Of a DNA stretch of 37,133 bases, positions 1 through 36,433 are shown piece by piece (positions within the stretch are counted from its first letter, which is position 1; each line of letters opens with the position of its first letter). This DNA is from a virus (lineage: Duplodnaviria; Heunggongvirae; Uroviricota; Caudoviricetes), in IMG/VR virus record IMGVR_UViG_2531839477_000018. The stretch is one strand, 5' to 3'. Made by a program: the position numbers and the translations under genes. Under the pieces are notes generated by a model. The model ran no database searches. It worked only from the letters and a program-made list of their open reading frames with translations, and was not told where the DNA came from.

Positions 1-1002
1 TTACCCTCTATTGTCAAAAGGGTTCAATTCAACAGCAGCCTCTAAATGACCTGGAGCAAAATGCGCATAACGCATAGTCATTTTTATATCGCTATGCCCC
101 AGTATTTTTTGCAACACAAGAATATTTCCGCCCCGCATCATAAAATGACTGGCAAACGTGTGACGTAGCACATGAGTTAATTGCCCATCAGGAAGCTCGA
201 TCTTCGCTCTCTTAATTGCAGCGTCAAAAGCCTCATAACATGGTGAAAATAGCGCTCCTCGTTTTTTGGGAAGCATAGCCTGCAATTGAGGTGAAATCGG
301 TACAGTGCGGTTCTTCTTTCCTTTAGTTTTAACAAATGTGATTCGACCGGGCAGTACTTGAGATTGCTTTAATCCTTCTGCTTCACTCCACCGAGCACCA
401 GTCGCAAGCCCAATACGGACAACAACCCCCAAATCTTTATTCCGTGACTCATCACACGCAATCAGAAGGCGTTCAATCTCATCTACATACAGAAACGCCA
501 GTTCCTTTTCTTCCTCACGAAACTTGCGAATACCAGTCAGGGGGTTTTCACCAGACCACTCCCCAAGGCGCTTCAGTTCGGCAAAAACAGCATGTAGATA
601 TGACTGCTCGCGATTAACGGTTGCTTCACTAAGTTTTTTCTTCCCCTTGGGATTCCACTCTCCTGATAACCTTCTTTCCCGATAAGTGGCAAACATATTT
701 TTGTCAAACTGAGAAGCAAATGGATCTCCCAGCCTGGAACAAATCGCCTCAAGTTTGACTTTGCGCTCTGCACCAGAGGACAAGGTTTTACCGTACATCT
801 CAAACCAACGAGCAATCAACTCAGAAAGACGAGGACCAGAACCATCTTGAAACTCGTCTCCAACTCTACTATTCATTAAACGGCGCTCATAAGAGAGCGC
901 CTCACTTTTTGTCGCAAACTGTTTACGAATGCGTTTTCCCGATGCCCCGTAGGGATAACATTCGCAAAGCCATTTACCTGATGGAATCTTACGAACCGAC
1001 AT
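1..1002 (-). CDS. int: Tyrosine recombinase / phage integrase (P2-like)
   Basis: 333-aa ORF with C-terminal catalytic region typical of tyrosine integrases (..LRHTFASHF.., ..LGHSDIKMTMRYAH..); stop codon is at window position 1-3; first gene of a P2-like gene order. Confidence 0.9.
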   Translation of the reverse strand: MSVRKIPSGKWLCECYPYGASGKRIRKQFATKSEALSYERRLMNSRVGDEFQDGSGPRLSELIARWFEMYGKTLSSGAERKVKLEAICSRLGDPFASQFDKNMFATYRERRLSGEWNPKGKKKLSEATVNREQSYLHAVFAELKRLGEWSGENPLTGIRKFREEEKELAFLYVDEIERLLIACDESRNKDLGVVVRIGLATGARWSEAEGLKQSQVLPGRITFVKTKGKKNRTVPISPQLQAMLPKKRGALFSPCYEAFDAAIKRAKIELPDGQLTHVLRHTFASHFMMRGGNILVLQKILGHSDIKMTMRYAHFAPGHLEAAVELNPFDNRG

Positions 1003-1007
1003 TTTAG

Positions 1008-1355
1008 TTACTTATCACATAAATCAAATGCAGCCTTAGTGACATCCCCCAGGCTCTTTTTTAACCCTGGGGCGGCATCATTATCTAGCCAAAATGGATT
1101 ATTGTTATCTAACGGTAACGCACCAAATGTTTTACCTTTTATTCGAGCCAAACCTGTAAGTGCATATAACTTATTATCGTCAAAATTCATCACATAAGGA
1201 TTACCATCAAGACACTGTAATTGAACCTCATCAGTATTAAATGGCCATACCCCATTGAAACTCTCACGTTCAATAGTTTTAAAAGGCATTGCGACGGCGG
1301 AAAAAGAAAACATAGATAAAAAAGTAACTAATAGTTGAACCTTTTTTACTTTCAT
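1008..1355 (-). CDS. Hypothetical secreted protein (N-terminal signal peptide), lysogeny-side cargo
   Basis: 115-aa ORF; hydrophobic N-terminus MKVKKVQLLVTFLSMFSFSAVAMP; AT-rich relative to phage structural genes; same strand as repressor and integrase. Confidence 0.5.
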   Translation of the reverse strand: MKVKKVQLLVTFLSMFSFSAVAMPFKTIERESFNGVWPFNTDEVQLQCLDGNPYVMNFDDNKLYALTGLARIKGKTFGALPLDNNNPFWLDNDAAPGLKKSLGDVTKAAFDLCDK

Positions 1356-1384: not shown

Positions 1385-2035
1385 TTACAAATTAAAAAAC
1401 GCCCTAGAAATGACACCGCCTACCAAAACCCCTACGCAGATAAAGAATATTATTTCTTTTGGATAAAGTCGGATTAATTCTGAAGCACGAAGTCGGACTT
1501 CTGGTAAGGTCGAACTCTCTGTGTGGCTTGATGCCGATTGTTGCTCTAACCACGACAATGCAGACTGTAACTGAGAACGAGTAAGATCGTTTAAACGTCC
1601 TGTACCGAAATTGATATGGCAATACCGCAGAAGTTTTTGTCGAAGTCCACAGTCTTCACTGTTACGTAGTAATAAACTTACAAGAGCCTTACAGGCATCA
1701 TGATCTTTACATCGCTCAAGCATTGCATGCAGAAAACTCTCCGCTGTTTTATATTGATTTACTGTCATATCATCAATACCAGCTACACCAATCTCCGCAT
1801 GTACTTTTTGCCAAATAATAAACGCTTCAGTATTGCTAGCTTCTGCAATAGCAGCAACCAAGCTATTTAGCTCCTTACGCTGAGCCTTAAGCAAAGGGCG
1901 ATCGTCATCATCATTATTCGAAGGGATTGCGATATTGACGGTATGAGAACCATCATATCGCTCTATCTGAATATTCTTTTCGTGAAAATCACGCCCAGCA
2001 ACGCGATTGTTTGAACCGTTTGAGTTGACGGCCAT
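1385..2035 (-). CDS. Hypothetical protein with C-terminal transmembrane anchor, immediately downstream of the repressor
   Basis: 216-aa ORF; C-terminal hydrophobic helix IIFFICVGVLVGGVI; N-terminus NNRVAGRDF echoes the repressor C-terminus; 15-bp gap after repressor stop. Confidence 0.5.
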   Translation of the reverse strand: MAVNSNGSNNRVAGRDFHEKNIQIERYDGSHTVNIAIPSNNDDDDRPLLKAQRKELNSLVAAIAEASNTEAFIIWQKVHAEIGVAGIDDMTVNQYKTAESFLHAMLERCKDHDACKALVSLLLRNSEDCGLRQKLLRYCHINFGTGRLNDLTRSQLQSALSWLEQQSASSHTESSTLPEVRLRASELIRLYPKEIIFFICVGVLVGGVISRAFFNL

Positions 2036-2050
2036 GTCACCTCCCTACTA

Positions 2051-2455
2051 TCACCTACCCTTAGTTTCGTTATAGTCACGACCAGCGATACGGTTATTAC
2101 CACCAGAAATATTTAACTCACGTCCTGATGGCTGAGTTTCCTTTTCACTGATCGCACCTTTTAAAGCCCCAATCACCGCGTTTTTCACATCTAACGAAGC
2201 TGCTCGAAAGCGAGTAATCAACTCCTGCTCATCATCGTTATAAGTTTCAGGTGAGTGAATTCCCAACACAACATACTGAACATCAAGGCCAAAACGAGAC
2301 AGCGCTGCCAAATACGCAGCATCAGGAAAGCTATCTCCTTTCTCATATCTAAGCTGAGTTAGCTTTTTGACTCCACCAATGTCGCTCATGGCAACTTGAC
2401 TAAGTCCCAATCTTTCCCTTTCCTCACGCAACCGCTGACCAATATCATTTTTCAT
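2051..2455 (-). CDS. HTH (XRE-type) immunity repressor, CI-like
   Basis: N-terminal helix-turn-helix IGQRLREERERLGLSQVAMSD; ORF track gives 2051-2530 but the internal Met at MKNDIGQ (2455) is the likelier start; divergent from rightward early operon. Confidence 0.7.
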   Translation of the reverse strand: MKNDIGQRLREERERLGLSQVAMSDIGGVKKLTQLRYEKGDSFPDAAYLAALSRFGLDVQYVVLGIHSPETYNDDEQELITRFRAASLDVKNAVIGALKGAISEKETQPSGRELNISGGNNRIAGRDYNETKGR

Positions 2456-2531: not shown

Positions 2532-2738
2532 ATGAAACAAGTTCTTCACGATACCAGATCACGCATTCCGCGTAACACCGCCACAGGTCCAAGACTGGCA
2601 CTTCGGCTGTCCCTCGAGGAGCGAGCCGTCATTGATGAAATGGCAGCTAAAGAACAACGCTCATCCTCTAACATGGCGCGCATGATCTTCCTTCGCGGCC
2701 TAGAGCTAACCCAGAAAGAACAAAACAAATCTTCCTGA
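2532..2738 (+). CDS. Small early regulator (Cro/Apl-like; possible ribbon-helix-helix)
   Basis: 68-aa basic ORF, first gene of rightward operon divergent from repressor; position as in the P2/186 immunity switch. Confidence 0.45.
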   Translation: MKQVLHDTRSRIPRNTATGPRLALRLSLEERAVIDEMAAKEQRSSSNMARMIFLRGLELTQKEQNKSS

Positions 2739-5278: not shown

Positions 5279-5401
5279 GAAACCAGAACATGCACACACA
5301 AAAAAACCGCTTGCCATGCCTCAATCGGTCAGGTTACATTTCCGCTGCAGCTCATAAAACGGGTGCCGGGATTCTCAACCCGATACAGAGCAAAGCGCAT
5401 A

Positions 5402-5425
5402 ACCGCGCAAGCGGTTTTTTTGTGC
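5402..5425 (+). terminator. Putative rho-independent terminator
   Basis: ACCGC-GCAA-GCGGT hairpin followed by a run of seven T; an inverted copy of the same 15-mer lies at 5309-5323. Confidence 0.4.
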
Positions 5426-5600
5426 GTACTGTATTGCCACGTCTTTTTCGCGTCAGAATTATGGCGGGGCGTACGGGGCCGACTTCGGTCGGGCCGGATT
5501 CTTTGCTCTCCGGTGTTGAGAACCCTGTACGTCTCGCCACCCCGAGATTCTCAACTCTGGATGGTGAGTTATTTCTATCACCGAGCAAAGAGGCCACACC

Positions 5601-5831
5601 ATGGCAGACCGCAAACAGCACCGCACTATCGCGGAGCGTCGTCACATCCAGACTGAAATCAACCACAGACTTTCCCGCGCATCACGCGTCGCGCAAATCA
5701 TGCACATCAATATGCTGCATGAGCGCAGCCACGCACTATCAAACATTTATTCCGCCTCTGTTTTCAGCTATCTGGCGGATGATCTGCACGAGCTTCAACA
5801 GCTCATCCAGCAGCAAAACAAACTCCATTAA
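5601..5831 (+). CDS. Hypothetical small protein
   Basis: 76-aa ORF with AAGAGG RBS 8 nt upstream of ATG. Confidence 0.35.
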   Translation: MADRKQHRTIAERRHIQTEINHRLSRASRVAQIMHINMLHERSHALSNIYSASVFSYLADDLHELQQLIQQQNKLH

Positions 5832-5903: not shown

Positions 5904-6269
5904 ATGATTCTCGCCAACGACTTTCTTGAATACCTGCTCAACACAGAGCGTGATCTTGCCGCTCGCGTACGTGATCGTTATGACATGTATCTGAAATCCC
6001 TGCCTGTACCGCAGCTCGCTGACGGAAAAATTGTTATTGATGGTCGCTACATGATTGACAGCCACGAGGGGAATTACAGGCTTTACCGCATTGAAGCCGG
6101 CACCCCGTCCGTTATTGGCATTTACCAGCGCCCATCCTCTGCGATCGTCGATGTGATTGCCGACAGCATCCGCATCACACACCACCATGCCGACACAGAA
6201 GACACTGTGCTGGAGATTCAGCGGCTGGCTGCCGTTTGCCGTGACACTCTGAACGGAATGACGAAGTAA
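5904..6269 (+). CDS. Hypothetical protein immediately upstream of replication gene A
   Basis: 121-aa ORF with AAGAGGA RBS; position analogous to P2 B but no recognisable similarity. Confidence 0.45.
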   Translation: MILANDFLEYLLNTERDLAARVRDRYDMYLKSLPVPQLADGKIVIDGRYMIDSHEGNYRLYRIEAGTPSVIGIYQRPSSAIVDVIADSIRITHHHADTEDTVLEIQRLAAVCRDTLNGMTK

Positions 6270-6275
6270 ATCAGT

Positions 6276-9098
6276 ATGACGACAGAGTACATCAGGGACT
6301 GGCAACAACCGCGCCACGCAGTAGGACGTGAAGGAACGGGGATCCCCGCACCTGAATCCGCACTTTCCTCCTGGCTGGATGCCTACCGGGCAGAGAACGA
6401 ACGCCGCCAGGAAATGGCTGATGCGGCGTTCTCCGCCACACCGCTGGGCAACCTGATTAATAAAAGCCTGGACGCACAGGAAAAACAGGACAAAACCATC
6501 ACACTGGCCAGAGAAGCCAGAAAACAGGCACGCGGCGCGGTGGATGAAGCCATGGCCTCGCTGCGCCTGCTGCCATCCTATCTGCGCGATCCGCTTATTC
6601 GCCACCTCTCCTTCCTGCGCAAAAAACAGGAATCTGACCGCCAGAAAGGTAAAAAGAACCAGCAGGCTGAACGCTACGCGCGCGGGACCCTGCGCAAAAT
6701 ATTCGAACGTCTGGACCGCACCGACCACCGCTGGCTGACACCGGGTTATCGCTCCCTTGCCGGACGCGAACGCCTGGATGATTTGCTTTACCTCCCGCAG
6801 CTCAACAAGCACCAGATACAGACGCTGGCCACCATGACGGCGGCGATGTTCAGCAGCACCTTCGAAAAACTCTGCGATGGCTTTGGCGCGACCGATGGCG
6901 AGCTGACCATGGATGTAACGCTGAAGGCGTATCAGATGCTGGCCCGCATGGCGTTACACCTGCACATCATGCCTCCACATTATGACGCACTGACAACAGA
7001 TAAAGACCGGAGGAACGAACCGGACACGGAGCTGCTGCCGGGCGCAATCCTTCGCCTGACCTGTGCGGAATGGTGGAAACGCAAACTGTGGCTGTTACGT
7101 TGCGAGTGGAGAGAAGAACAACTCCGCGCCGCCTGTCTGGTTTCCAGAAAAACATCACCCTATCTGAGCCAGGACGCGTTAAGCGAGTTTCGCGCACAGC
7201 GCGAGAAAACACGCGATTTCCTGAAAAGTTTCATGCTGGAAAATGAAGACGGATTCACGATTGATCTCGAGACAGTGTATTACGCGGGAGTAAGTAACCC
7301 GGTTCACCGTAAGGCAGAAATGATGGCCACCATGAAGGGGCTGGAACTTCTGGCCGAAGCCCGTGGCGACAAAGCGGTGTTTCTGACTGTCACCTGCCCG
7401 TCAAAATACCACGCCACAACAGAGAACGGTCATCCGAATCCCAAATGGAACGGGGCCACCATGCGCGACTCCAGCGATTACCTGGTTAACACGTTTTTTG
7501 CGGCGGTCCGCAAGAAACTGAACCGCGACGGCCTGCGCTGGTATGGCATCCGCACGGTGGAGCCTCACCATGACGGCACCGTGCACTGGCATATGATGGT
7601 CTTTGCTCATCCGGAAGAAATCGACAGCATCGTGGCCATCACCCGCGATATTGCCATTCAGGAAGACCGCCACGAGCTGGGCAATGACATAACTCCGCGC
7701 TTTAAGGCAGAGTACGTCGACGGTTCGAAAGGTACGCCGACCAGCTACATCGCCACCTACATCGGAAAGAACCTGGACAGCCGCGCCGTGGATGGCATTG
7801 ACCCGAAAACAGGCAAGCCACGCGTTGATCACGAAACCGGAAAATCAATGGCCGAGAGCGTGGAACGCGCCATCGGCTGGGCGCGCCTTCACCGCGTCCG
7901 CCAGTTCCAGTTCTTTGGTATCCCCTCCCGTCAGGTATGGCGTGAACTCCGCCGCCTTGCCAGTCAGATGGCCCGCAACCCGGAAGGTCCACAACGTCTG
8001 GAAAATGACGCAATGGATGCGGTACTCGCTGCCGCTGATGCCGGGTGTTTTGCCACCTACATTGAGAAACAGGGTGGCGTACTTGTTCCACGCAAGGATT
8101 ACCTGATTCGCACCGCCTACGACCTCGCAGAAGAGCTGAACGATTACGGCGAGCAAAGCGTACAGATTTACGGGATCTGGTCGCCACAAATCGGGGAATC
8201 TTCCCGCGTGTGCACGCCCCCGGATAACTGGAAGCTGGTAAGACGTAAACCGGAAGCGGAAGACAGCGCCCGCGAAAATGGTTTTGACCTTCAGGGCGGC
8301 CCTGCCGCCCCTTGGACTCGTGGCAATAACTGTCCCCGTGTACAGGAAACGGACAACAACGGGACAGAACAGCCGGAAGAACGGCCAGCACCGTGGCCGC
8401 AGCTCCCTGACGGCGTTGAAGTGAACGAATGGATGCGCTCACTGAAACGGCACGAACGCCGGGCGCTGATGCGTTCGCTTCGTGACAAACAGGCAAAAAA
8501 CAGCAGTGATGAAATGCAGAGCTGGACACAGAGCCGCAAACAGCAGCGGCCTTTGCCTGATAACCACGAATTACTCGCTAAAGAATGGCGGGAGTCTGCT
8601 GAATCTCTCGGCCTGCATATCGGTGAACAGCAGATGCAGCACCTGTTACGGGGCGGCAGTCTGTACGTTGACGGCAGCATCATTGCACCGCAGGGATTTG
8701 AAATTGTACGCAAACCGGATACCCGACCGGACAGCCGGATCACGCAGCTCTGGCAGCGCCTGAGCCGTAACCACGGCGTAAGCAGCACGGAGATCCGCCA
8801 TAACCCGGTCGCCAGCTATCTGGAACTGCTGGGGGCATCAGACCCCGAAGCCGCCGCACGCCTGGCATCCACACTTCAGCAAGACCAGAACACCATGAAA
8901 ACACCCGTTACCGTGCTTTCTGACATGCTGCGCGCCATCCGCGACGCAGAGCACGCACAGAGAATCAGTGAAACCACTGAACGCGCCCACCGCAAAGCAG
9001 ACCTGCTGCAGGGTGGCCTGACCAGTGGAAACAAAAAACAGACAGAAACGGGATTCACAAATCCCGTAAATGAGCAAAAAACGCGCCGCGATATATGA
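6276..9098 (+). CDS. A: Replication initiation protein A (rolling-circle endonuclease, P2 gpA-like)
   Basis: 940-aa ORF; HUH-type metal-binding motif (..GTVHWHMMVFA..); position downstream of early operon as in P2/186. Confidence 0.85.
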   Translation: MTTEYIRDWQQPRHAVGREGTGIPAPESALSSWLDAYRAENERRQEMADAAFSATPLGNLINKSLDAQEKQDKTITLAREARKQARGAVDEAMASLRLLPSYLRDPLIRHLSFLRKKQESDRQKGKKNQQAERYARGTLRKIFERLDRTDHRWLTPGYRSLAGRERLDDLLYLPQLNKHQIQTLATMTAAMFSSTFEKLCDGFGATDGELTMDVTLKAYQMLARMALHLHIMPPHYDALTTDKDRRNEPDTELLPGAILRLTCAEWWKRKLWLLRCEWREEQLRAACLVSRKTSPYLSQDALSEFRAQREKTRDFLKSFMLENEDGFTIDLETVYYAGVSNPVHRKAEMMATMKGLELLAEARGDKAVFLTVTCPSKYHATTENGHPNPKWNGATMRDSSDYLVNTFFAAVRKKLNRDGLRWYGIRTVEPHHDGTVHWHMMVFAHPEEIDSIVAITRDIAIQEDRHELGNDITPRFKAEYVDGSKGTPTSYIATYIGKNLDSRAVDGIDPKTGKPRVDHETGKSMAESVERAIGWARLHRVRQFQFFGIPSRQVWRELRRLASQMARNPEGPQRLENDAMDAVLAAADAGCFATYIEKQGGVLVPRKDYLIRTAYDLAEELNDYGEQSVQIYGIWSPQIGESSRVCTPPDNWKLVRRKPEAEDSARENGFDLQGGPAAPWTRGNNCPRVQETDNNGTEQPEERPAPWPQLPDGVEVNEWMRSLKRHERRALMRSLRDKQAKNSSDEMQSWTQSRKQQRPLPDNHELLAKEWRESAESLGLHIGEQQMQHLLRGGSLYVDGSIIAPQGFEIVRKPDTRPDSRITQLWQRLSRNHGVSSTEIRHNPVASYLELLGASDPEAAARLASTLQQDQNTMKTPVTVLSDMLRAIRDAEHAQRISETTERAHRKADLLQGGLTSGNKKQTETGFTNPVNEQKTRRDI

Positions 9099-9174: not shown

Positions 9175-10134
9175 ATGAAAATTTGTATCGATGACGGCTC
9201 CACCAACATCAAGCTGGCATGGACTGAGAACGGCGAACGCCGCAACGCCATCAGCCCGAACAGCTTCAAGTCGGAATGGTCTGCGCCGTTCGGTGGCACG
9301 CAGCCCGCGAACTACATGCTTGATGGCGTGCGCTATGGTTTTGATCCTGTCAGCGATCGCTTTGTCCAGACGACCGACACGCAATACCAGTACAGCGATG
9401 TGAATGTCATTGCCATTCATCACGCGCTGGTCAAATCAGGCATCACGCCACAGGCGGTGGATGTGGTTGTCACCCTGCCGCTGAGCGAGTATTTCGACAC
9501 AAACGCCCAGCCGGATATGACCAACATCAACCGCAAAAAAGCGAACGTTATGCGCCCGGTGGAGTACCAGAACGGTGAGGCATTCACTATCCGTAATGTA
9601 CGGGTTATGCCTGAATCCATTCCGGCAGGCTTTAAGGCACTGGCTGACATGAGTCCGTTTGAATCCCTGCTGATTGTGGATTTGGGCGGAACCACGCTGG
9701 ATGTGGCAAAGGTTCAGGGACAACTGGCAGGTATCAGCCAGGTGTTTTGCGATCCACACGTAGGCGTTTCCCTGATGGCCGATGCCGTACTGTCGGTGAT
9801 GGCCACTAACGGTATGCGTACCAGTCACCACATCGCCAATACCATTATCGAACATCGCCATGATGAAGCCTGGCTGCGCCAGCACATCCACAATGACGCG
9901 CATTACGCCAGCCTGATGGCGGTTATTCGTGAAAAGGAAGAAACACTGAAACAACGCGTGATCCGCGCGCTGGCGGGTTTTTCGGGTTACGGGCGGGTGA
10001 TGGTTGTCGGTGGCGGGACGGAGATTGTGGCACCCGCTATCCGCGAAGCCTGCGGAGTTAATGCGACTTTCATCGCGGACGGGGTGCCACAGTTTGCTCT
10101 GGTTAATGGGCTGTACGCAATGGACAAGGAGTAA
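9175..10134 (+). CDS. parM: ParM/StbA-family actin-like segregation ATPase
   Basis: N-terminus MKICIDDGSTNIKLAW matches the ParM/StbA phosphate-1 signature (R1 ParM begins MLVFIDDGSTNIKLQW); later ..DLGGTT.. and ..VVGGG.. ASKHA motifs; 319 aa. Confidence 0.75.
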   Translation: MKICIDDGSTNIKLAWTENGERRNAISPNSFKSEWSAPFGGTQPANYMLDGVRYGFDPVSDRFVQTTDTQYQYSDVNVIAIHHALVKSGITPQAVDVVVTLPLSEYFDTNAQPDMTNINRKKANVMRPVEYQNGEAFTIRNVRVMPESIPAGFKALADMSPFESLLIVDLGGTTLDVAKVQGQLAGISQVFCDPHVGVSLMADAVLSVMATNGMRTSHHIANTIIEHRHDEAWLRQHIHNDAHYASLMAVIREKEETLKQRVIRALAGFSGYGRVMVVGGGTEIVAPAIREACGVNATFIADGVPQFALVNGLYAMDKE

Positions 10135-36130: not shown

Positions 36131-36217
36131 TGGTACCCGGAGCGGGACTTGAACCCGCACAGCGCGAACGCCGAGGGATTTTAAATCCCTTGTGTCTACC
36201 GATTCCACCATCCGGGC
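36131..36217 (-). tRNA. leuZ: tRNA-Leu (anticodon UAA)
   Basis: Reverse complement reads GCCCGGATGGTGGAATCGGTAGACACAAGGGATTTAAAATCCCTCGGCGTTCGCGCTGTGCGGGTTCAAGTCCCGCTCCGGGTACCA, 87 nt with CCA end. Confidence 0.95.
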
Positions 36218-36229
36218 TCGGGAAGAAAG

Positions 36230-36303
36230 TGGAGGCGCGTTCCGGAGTCGAACCGGACTAGACGGATTTGCAATCCGCTACATAACCGCTTTGTTAACGC
36301 GCC
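36230..36303 (-). tRNA. cysT: tRNA-Cys (anticodon GCA)
   Basis: Reverse complement reads GGCGCGTTAACAAAGCGGTTATGTAGCGGATTGCAAATCCGTCTAGTCCGGTTCGACTCCGGAACGCGCCTCCA, 74 nt. Confidence 0.95.
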
Positions 36304-36357
36304 AAATTCTTCAGGCCTTTCAGCCAGACATCCGCTTGAGGCCGATGTCTTTTAAAC

Positions 36358-36433
<76 letters not shown>

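Follow-up and report, generated by a model that had tools for sequence, protein, structure and literature searches.

Why should the repressor of a prophage end in the same short peptide with which the product of the next gene begins? The question is raised by IMG/VR record IMGVR_UViG_2531839477_000018, a stretch of 37,133 nucleotides (nt), hereafter the window, which is a prophage of the P2 family (Peduoviridae, Xuanwuvirus). Its lysogenic operon, on the minus strand, opens with an XRE-type repressor of 134 amino acids (2051–2455, with the stop codon at 2051–2053; present in the list of open reading frames (ORFs) and as RefSeq coding sequence WP_000786769), followed by a protein of 216 amino acids, here called the partner (1385–2035, minus strand; phrog_5825, and Pfam PF27202 in public annotation). 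The comparisons described below make it probable that repressor and partner bind one another through the shared peptide, which could be a previously unreported form of lysogeny control.

A peptide shared across a gene junction

The repressor ends ..LNISGGNNRIAGRDYNETKGR (..ELNISGGNNRIAGRDYNETKGR) and the partner begins MAVNSNGSNNRVAGRDFHEKN. The core of the first copy, GGNNRIAGRDYNE, is encoded at 2066–2104 (minus strand) and lies within a more extended match, LNISGGNNRIAGRDYNE; the core of the second, GSNNRVAGRDFHE, is encoded at 1979–2017 (minus strand). Nine of the 13 core residues are identical, as are 27 of the 39 underlying nucleotides (69%), and different synonymous codons are used for six of the nine identical residues. 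The initial annotation, which had reported a motif common to these two termini and DNA copies about 70% identical with mostly synonymous differences, is borne out on both counts. The best ungapped BLOSUM62 score between the last 30 residues of the repressor and the first 30 of the partner is 62, against 18.9 ± 3.8 for shuffled controls (n = 5,000), of which the highest scored 39 and none reached 62. The match between the two peptides is not due to chance.

Both reading frames are well placed. The repressor starts at the ATG at 2455, as in RefSeq, and not at the GTG at 2530 proposed by the ORF finder. The partner ATG at 2035 is the first start codon following an in-frame stop, and a Shine–Dalgarno sequence, GGAGG (2040–2044, minus strand), lies 4 nt before it, within the 15-nt gap that separates the repressor TGA stop from the partner start. 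These features and the conservation of the N-terminus in homologues rule out a wrong start codon for the 216-residue protein and uphold the assumption, made in the initial annotation, that the second copy of the motif is translated from this start.

Cognate tails and partners across prophages

The peptide is retained in both protein families. Among the 120 partner homologues listed, from Escherichia, Klebsiella, Serratia, Enterobacter, Erwinia and other hosts, all but a few begin xVNSxGxxNRxAGRDFxEN, the exceptions being single-residue variants, and about 60 repressor homologues share the C-terminal end ..INVSGxGNRVAGRDYNENKK; the motif is thus present in homologues of both proteins and not a peculiarity of one phage. 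More distant repressor homologues keep the helix-turn-helix (HTH) domain and the helical hairpin that follows it, with other tails rich in glycine, asparagine and glutamine, such as QIFNGDISGQFAGNQIINNG, NISNNTIRGEGQIAGGNIY and TFHGSVGQSVAGSITN. Related enterobacteria have quite different variants, Escherichia, Klebsiella and their relatives NRxAGRDY, and Pectobacterium and Brenneria QIFNGDISGQFAGNQIINNG.

When each species was represented by a single genome, a scan yielded 80 loci, 68 of which (the window counted) have a comparable downstream ORF. At 35 of these 68, a tail-bearing repressor is followed by an ORF on the same strand whose product begins with the variant of that very tail, the ORF starting anywhere from 22 nt before to 63 nt after the repressor stop. 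The tail PQIFNGDISGQFAGNQIINNG is matched by the partner N-terminus MRQEFNGTAQGQFSSRDIINIH at locus L013, GQQINGPISGGVAGRDFVQG by MKQEINGDVEGGIAGRDIVRQ at L014, YTVDYGNAQIGQASAGDIVNKN by KTVSFGGAQIDQAAAGDINNYY at L019 and MQFTQHGSGMQVGHVSAPV by WRFEQTGSGTQFGQVSGDV at L034. Repressor homologues that lack a tail have no matching neighbour and give background scores, as with the many Pseudomonas genes that adjoin a response regulator. Over 25 non-redundant modules, cognate pairs score 43.2 on average and non-cognate ones 24.0, a tail has its own partner as the best match at 12 of the 25 loci, and the observed sum was reached in none of 20,000 permutations of the pairing. Average identity across the repressors is 52% for the bodies and 11% for the tails, while 207 of the 385 residues in cognate motif segments are identical. 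With bodies conserved, tails divergent and cognate segments matched, the match of a tail follows the N-terminus of its partner and not the folded domains of the repressor.

The matching is maintained at the level of the peptide. At 23 non-redundant loci, the 207 identical residues use the same codon in 96 cases, compared with 94.9 expected from codon usage. Because identical residues share codons no more often than expected, the similarity is kept by selection on the peptide and not by gene conversion; a DNA-level repeat or gene conversion is ruled out. The preference of the initial annotation for peptide-level conservation over a recent duplication is therefore supported and extends beyond the window. 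The bodies behind the constant N-terminal motif are of several types, including Flk-like tail-anchored proteins, proteins with a zinc ribbon and a transmembrane segment, and proteins with two transmembrane segments; at the fetched loci, the Flk-like domain is present in about half of the partners, the others being small membrane proteins of unrelated kinds. None of the longer repressor homologues was found to be a fusion of repressor and partner.

For the window-type motif, a profile of 28 positions was compared with 1.84 billion representative proteins (E ≤ 1e-3), giving 61 hits, 59 prokaryotic and two in eukaryotic repeat proteins. All 59 prokaryotic matches lie at an extreme terminus, 40 at the C-terminus, 19 at the N-terminus and none internally. 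The domain check comprised a Pfam scan of 30 C-terminal carriers, the rest being judged by length and sequence. The scanned carriers are HTH proteins, 19 of them with HTH_3 and nine with the unrelated Phage_CI_repr HTH family; a helix of the form ..DEQLLLEAYR..RKxLLAxLLTG.. precedes the tail in all these C-terminal HTH carriers, appearing in the Phage_CI_repr-type proteins as the equivalent helix PPDEQLLLEAYR..RKxLLAxLLTG before the same tail. The N-terminal carriers are small proteins, and among the 14 that are full-length, 13 have a transmembrane segment and eight a CxxC..CxxC zinc ribbon. The two strongest matches, the eukaryotic repeat proteins of 2754 and 1162 amino acids, are taken as chance similarities amplified by repetition. 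The longer of them, P0241, is an animal immunoglobulin-repeat protein that contains YKCEANNIAGRDFHEIKLNV nine times, its AGRD presumably sitting in the F–G turn of the immunoglobulin fold; this chance match hints at a preference of xNR[IV]AGRD[FY]xE for a beta-hairpin that turns at AGRD.

The module is a widespread gene pair, found in Gamma- and Betaproteobacteria in prophages of P2-like, Mu-like and lambdoid type. In P2-like immunity regions, an integrase gene and a gpA-like replication gene are close by; in Mu-like transposable phages, it is accompanied by a transposase (phrog_310) and a transcriptional regulator (phrog_1368); and in lambdoid-type regions by CII-like and Rha-like genes. Isolated phages have the pair as well. 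In Pseudomonas phage B3, the tail of the repressor ORF18, ..GISVTGDGNRTAGRDFHERKE, is paired with ORF20, which begins VNIEVTGSNNIVAGRDFIENH.. and has a hydrophobic C-terminal half, seemingly two transmembrane segments. In BcepMu, the repressor gp17 has the tail ..QEQVFHGSVGQAVKVEGNLDQQGISFF.. and its partner gp18, annotated as a membrane protein, carries ..KQEFNKPVGQAIQAGEANIADRSVNIRAG..; in KS10, the tail of the repressor gp13, ..MVASGSGITQVGSRVRI.., is paired with ..TMSASGFGIIQVAGDLSI.. of gp12. KS10 and BcepMu are co-resident in B. cenocepacia J2315 (PMC2628397), and their motifs belong to different classes. The KS10 genome paper gives gp12 as having no significant match, and full-text searches of the literature on amyloid signalling with HTH proteins, on prophage repressors and membrane proteins with a shared motif, and on Flk, P2-like immunity and B3, BcepMu and KS10 gave no description of the pair.

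Protein architecture and the role of the peptide

In AlphaFold2 models, both motif copies lie in low-confidence, unstructured termini beside confident folds. The repressor starts with an HTH DNA-binding domain (residues 1–64; 2264–2455, minus strand) of five helices with predicted local distance difference test (pLDDT) values of 83–94, Pfam HTH matches covering residues 5–80. Next comes the helical hairpin, DEQELITRFRAASLDVKNAVIGAL.. (residues 74–102; 2150–2236, minus strand; helices 74–85 and 88–102, mean pLDDT 79–89), and then a disordered C-terminal tail with the first motif copy (residues 106–134; 2054–2140, minus strand; pLDDT about 40, no secondary structure). The family matches are to Pfam HTH_31, HTH_19 and HTH_3 and to PHROGs labelled transcriptional regulator or repressor. 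In sequence, the repressor matches the HTH domains of the P22 C2 repressor and of an Xre-family regulator of ICEBs1, and solved relatives cover the HTH domain only; Foldseek aligns this domain with P22 C2 at a root mean square deviation of 2.1 Å. The full model aligns with SinR (PDB 1b0n) over 105 columns that include the hairpin (Foldseek probability 1.00, E 1.1e-3), and its structural neighbours include PDB 9sf2 and 9iaq. The hairpin is kept in all tail-bearing relatives, as seen in the conserved columns of their alignment, and probably serves dimerisation. An S24 peptidase autocleavage domain is absent, since only HTH families match and the model consists of HTH domain, hairpin and disordered tail. 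Against the PADLOC defence models, the repressor gives only weak, HTH-level matches of RmrA type.

The partner model is unstructured over residues 1–40, with a helical domain at 46–174 and a C-terminal transmembrane helix at 192–215. Its disordered, predicted cytoplasmic N-terminus (residues 1–41; 1913–2035, minus strand; pLDDT 42–48) holds the second motif copy and, after it, a degenerate repeat of the unit (..ERYDGSHTVNIAIPS); in the relatives L004, L016 and L020, the second GRD unit is clearer. Residues 37–166 (1538–1927, minus strand; helices at pLDDT 83–92) form the Flk-like helical cytoplasmic domain, which matches NCBIfam NF007987 (Flk) with E 8.6e-16. At 58.1 bits against an equivalog cut-off of 353, and over these residues only, the match indicates that the partner shares a domain with Flk and is not an Flk orthologue. 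A hydropathy segment at residues 187–216 (1388–1477, minus strand), which contains the 192–215 helix, is the transmembrane tail anchor; anchored at its C-terminus, the partner has its N-terminal motif in the cytoplasm, alongside the repressor. Foldseek comparison of the partner with the PDB gave nothing significant, the best match being SaPI2 Stl at E 0.7. Comparison with PADLOC, Pfam and NCBIfam matched no defence model or known toxin family, and the partner was rejected as a known defence system for want of a PADLOC match.

We hold, with slightly better than even confidence, that the repressor tail and the partner N-terminus are two copies of one homotypic docking peptide, linking a non-SOS repressor with a partner that in most cases is anchored in the membrane. 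The peptide is probably beta-prone, with short strands broken by glycine and asparagine turns around the AGRD turn. Encoded in one lysogenic operon, both proteins should be made in the lysogen; with the partner tail-anchored in the inner membrane and its motif on the cytoplasmic side, the two peptide copies would pair directly, like with like. By imitating the element through which the repressor itself associates, as SinI imitates that of SinR, the membrane partner may dock the repressor, titrate it, or cap a tail by which repressor dimers would otherwise be joined. In a repressor without a LexA-like cleavage domain, such pairing would supply a post-translational control point, which could feed induction or the strength of immunity, and rapid divergence of the motif would insulate co-resident prophages from one another. 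The sequences and models show the motif pair, its conservation, its strictly terminal place, the co-variation within pairs, selection on the peptide, the low-confidence unstructured setting of both copies, the membrane topology and the location in prophage immunity regions. We infer from them that the peptides pair physically, in a structural form and with a direction and outcome of regulation of the kind set out here, and that the pair is linked to induction. Direct like-with-like pairing is favoured because similarity, and not complementarity, is selected, because diversification affects the motif and spares the repressor's folded parts, because only these two genes travel together, and because the variants differ between related hosts, which speaks against a host factor common to them.

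Several observations weigh against this proposal. The partners at L010, L013, L021, L022, L030, L034 and L059 fall below the hydropathy threshold, and KS10 gp12 carries the motif and has no obvious transmembrane segment, so that membrane anchoring appears common among partners and not universal. At least four tail-bearing loci (L017, L027, L029 and L031) have no detectable partner, and the existence of such tail-only loci means that the tail must have a function of its own. Co-variation of linked genes could also arise if both proteins bind a fast-evolving third factor. Finally, there is no obvious reason to co-express a repressor with its own titrator, and the direction of control could be the reverse.

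Such a reversal is the essence of a toxin–antitoxin or abortive-infection arrangement, in which the membrane protein would be an effector, toxic or excluding when free or when self-assembled by way of its N-terminal motif, that the repressor tail caps and that is freed once the repressor is lost or titrated. The genes are laid out like those of type II antitoxins: the HTH protein, with its disordered C-terminal tail, comes first, and the second gene follows after 15 nt or overlaps it. The repressor gives weak HTH-level matches to the MqsA and HipB models, the partners are small membrane proteins without enzymatic domains, and lambda cI-rexAB is a precedent for exclusion genes co-transcribed with a repressor, RexB being a membrane protein. 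Even so, we judge this arrangement distinctly improbable, given the lack of any matching defence model or toxin family, the great diversity of partner bodies (one of them without a transmembrane segment), the tail-only loci and the character of Flk, the sole characterised relative of the cytoplasmic domain, which is regulatory and not toxic (PMC13344023). A pair without present function, left by a junction duplication or gene fission or reflecting an operator or RNA structure that occurs twice at the DNA level, is strongly disfavoured, with a probability close to nil. The copies do flank a gene junction, and fission with a duplicated junction could yield such a pair; however, synonymous sites are not conserved beyond the expectation from codon usage, the peptide has been kept, and co-varies, in Gamma- and Betaproteobacteria and in several phage types, it is strictly terminal in 59 of 59 profile matches, and no fused protein of HTH domain, motif and partner was seen. 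A common third factor, for which both peptides would be tags recognised by the same protease, adaptor, chaperone or phage antirepressor, with the membrane copy a decoy or co-regulated substrate, would suit motifs that are terminal and disordered, and the repressor tails end in basic residues (..NENKK, ..KKNK, ..RKRKR) that recall the MuA-type C-terminal ClpX tags. We nevertheless consider it very unlikely. The motif differs greatly among phages of close hosts, which argues against a conserved host factor; only two genes travel across P2-like, Mu-like and lambdoid backbones, with no third co-varying gene evident; and no annotated antirepressor was found in the window. Of the two functions offered by the initial annotation, a mutual interaction motif is favoured by sequences that diversify strongly between lineages and are matched within pairs, by the conserved folded parts of the repressor and by the interchangeable partner bodies, whereas a common host protease or adaptor tag is disfavoured because related enterobacteria carry quite different variants and because phages of unrelated types have acquired the two genes as a self-contained module.

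Like-with-like pairing might amount to beta-augmentation in solution or take the more drastic form of a templated cross-beta assembly. In amyloid-like (prion-like) signalling, on the model of HET-S/NWD2 in fungi and of bacterial BASS pairs such as Bab/Agp, the motifs of a membrane protein clustered by a signal would turn cross-beta, then template the repressor tails, aggregate the repressor and derepress the prophage, a possibility that we take seriously and still regard as unlikely. The gene-pair anatomy is the same, with the motif at the C-terminus of the first product and at the N-terminus of the adjacent second; the motif is about 20 residues long, rich in glycine, asparagine and glutamine with alternating hydrophobic residues, and located in disordered termini; some partners have two to three pseudo-repeats; selection for similarity over complementarity is what in-register stacking predicts; and BASS11 functions within the defence island of a prophage in E. 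coli (bioRxiv 10.1101/2024.11.07.622273). Against this, neither the window proteins nor the 59 profile matches, as judged by Pfam for 30 of the C-terminal carriers and by length and sequence for the others, contain NLR/STAND or TGP-type sensor domains or Bell/HeLo, TIR or CHAT effector domains. A search of a word-indexed protein database for NLR or TIR carriers of a second motif class, QxFHGxVGQVxxGD, returned two short matches and was uninformative. In a parallel in-register amyloid, the conserved arginine and aspartate would stack like on like, and an irreversible aggregating switch made constitutively with its target would require tight control. We give a low probability to the pair being a prion-like lysogeny switch, in which an envelope or membrane cue would cluster the partner and the repressor would aggregate at the membrane, leading to SOS-independent induction. 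If true, motif diversification would provide each prophage with a private channel and the induction mechanism would be of a new class; we know of no earlier case of amyloid-type signalling onto a bacterial transcription factor.

Prophage setting and comparison with known systems

Downstream of the partner, the lysogenic operon continues with a DUF2511 protein (1008–1355, minus strand) and the integrase (1–1002, minus strand), and no terminator-like sites were found between the operon genes from repressor to integrase. The DUF2511 protein, encoded between the partner and integrase genes, has a hydrophobic N-terminus that is a possible signal peptide; no such gene turned up at the related P2-like loci L002, L004, L016 and L020, and for that reason it looks like variable cargo outside the module. 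The switch region is 97.8% identical to that of Escherichia phage 520873, and 525 of 5426 complete E. coli genomes have a match, placing the cassette in about 10% of them. In the deposited genome of phage 520873 (L082; NC_049344, 1039–3080), the integrase is annotated as two coding sequences and no feature is annotated where the partner and DUF2511 genes match, which suggests that the record holds frameshifts or sequencing errors. Public data also include frameshifted partner variants without the tail anchor (P0005 and P0031).

Divergent from the lysogenic operon, on the plus strand, are an Arc-like and a Cox-like gene. The Arc-like repressor ORF (2532–2738, plus strand) has strong PHROGs support (E 1e-28); over the same DNA, RefSeq places a 45-residue hypothetical protein (2546–2683, minus strand), probably a mis-call. 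Between the repressor and Arc-like genes, at 2444–2497, lies a 20-nt inverted repeat, ATCATTTTTCATACAAAAAA / TTTTTTGATACCAAAATGAT, which overlaps a promoter-like site (TTGACA at 2466); judged by these sequence features, the two are a candidate operator and early promoter. Further along the plus strand, two RNAs score above the Rfam gathering threshold, the Hfq-binding RNA isrK (5347–5421, 59.5 bits) and a C4 antisense RNA (5457–5544, 78.5 bits), just 5′ of the small ORFs 5601–5831 (phrog_3688) and 5904–6269 (phrog_3237), which precede the replication gene. The C4 RNA of P1 and P7 controls the icd-ant antirepressor operon, so the C4/isrK region here may give the switch a second input, one under RNA control; none of the early-region ORFs of the window has a PHROG antirepressor label. 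A single LexA-box-like site was found in the window, at 8330 inside the replication gene, a frequency at chance level, and SOS control of the switch was rejected on this ground. Directly 3′ of the replication gene is a partition-protein-like ORF (9175–10134, plus strand; phrog_691, E 5e-89), and at the far end of the window are three tRNA genes (36134–36433, minus strand), either borne by the prophage or at the junction with the host.

In many temperate phages, P2-like and Mu-like ones among them, the repressor is not cleavable by RecA. What the present comparison describes in such phages is a portable two-gene immunity cassette, with a fast-evolving terminal peptide on the repressor that is displayed also by a mostly membrane-anchored neighbour. 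If the peptides pair, they would form a direct physical link from the inner membrane to the lysogeny switch and a likely basis for the insulation of co-resident prophages, and would extend to transcription control a shared-terminal-motif logic so far drawn from NLR and cell-death systems. A C-terminal peptide that matches the N-terminus of the next gene's product is, moreover, a simple genomic signature with which protein–protein couplings can be mined.

SinR is the classic example of a repressor whose association element is copied by its antagonist, the product of a neighbouring gene. As in the SinR/SinI system of Bacillus subtilis (PDB 1b0n), an XRE HTH domain is joined to a C-terminal helical association domain, over which the repressor model aligns, and the product of an adjacent gene carries an element shared with the repressor, here a peptide that co-varies. 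The shared element differs in being a glycine/asparagine-rich, apparently unstructured terminal peptide instead of a helical hook, and the partner is usually membrane-anchored with a domain of its own; antagonism, by analogy, is only proposed here. SinI/SinR is the closest regulatory precedent, and the closest anatomical one is the amyloid-signalling gene pair: fungal HET-S/NWD2, bacterial BASS1–10 (bioRxiv 10.1101/2020.01.06.895854) and BASS11, the Bab/Agp pair of E. coli (bioRxiv 10.1101/2024.11.07.622273). Like these, the window, the 35 loci, B3, BcepMu and KS10 have one motif in two adjacent gene products, C-terminal in one and N-terminal in the other, located in flexible terminal extensions and belonging to many sequence families matched within pairs, and Bab/Agp too is found in a prophage region. 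Unlike them, the carriers are a repressor and a small membrane protein and not a cell-death effector and an NLR/TGP-type sensor, and the conserved core is charged (GRD). The composition of the motif as a whole, with its glycine, asparagine and glutamine, alternating hydrophobic residues and pseudo-repeats, would be compatible with amyloid. As judged from domain content, the module is not assignable to BASS, the defining carrier domains being absent.

Other systems share single features. Flk (Fluke/RflH), which regulates flagellar export in Salmonella and E. coli, is a cytoplasmic protein with a tail anchor (PMC6794478; PMC13344023), and the partner, which matches the Flk model over residues 37–166, likewise combines a C-terminal tail anchor with a cytoplasmic body; it differs in its length (216 amino acids against a 339-position model), its phage origin, its N-terminal motif and the lack of a flagellar context. 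The type II antitoxins HigA, MqsA and HipB are also HTH proteins with a disordered C-terminal tail, encoded directly upstream of their partner in an operon, but there the tail binds a folded toxin and not a copy of itself, and the downstream protein here matches no toxin. In contrast to the SOS-cleavable repressors LexA and lambda CI, the present repressor has no S24 peptidase domain. The antirepressors Qtip of VP882, RstC of CTXphi and AimX of the arbitrium system inactivate non-cleavable phage repressors by sequestration or aggregation. They resemble the proposed arrangement in exerting post-translational control over an HTH phage repressor that has no RecA-dependent cleavage domain, and differ from it in being small, soluble and made in response to a signal, neither co-transcribed membrane proteins nor sharers of a terminal peptide. 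Set beside these systems, the shared-terminal-motif logic and antagonists that act as mimics are already known; the carriers, the motif superfamily and the proposed role in the lysogeny switch are new.

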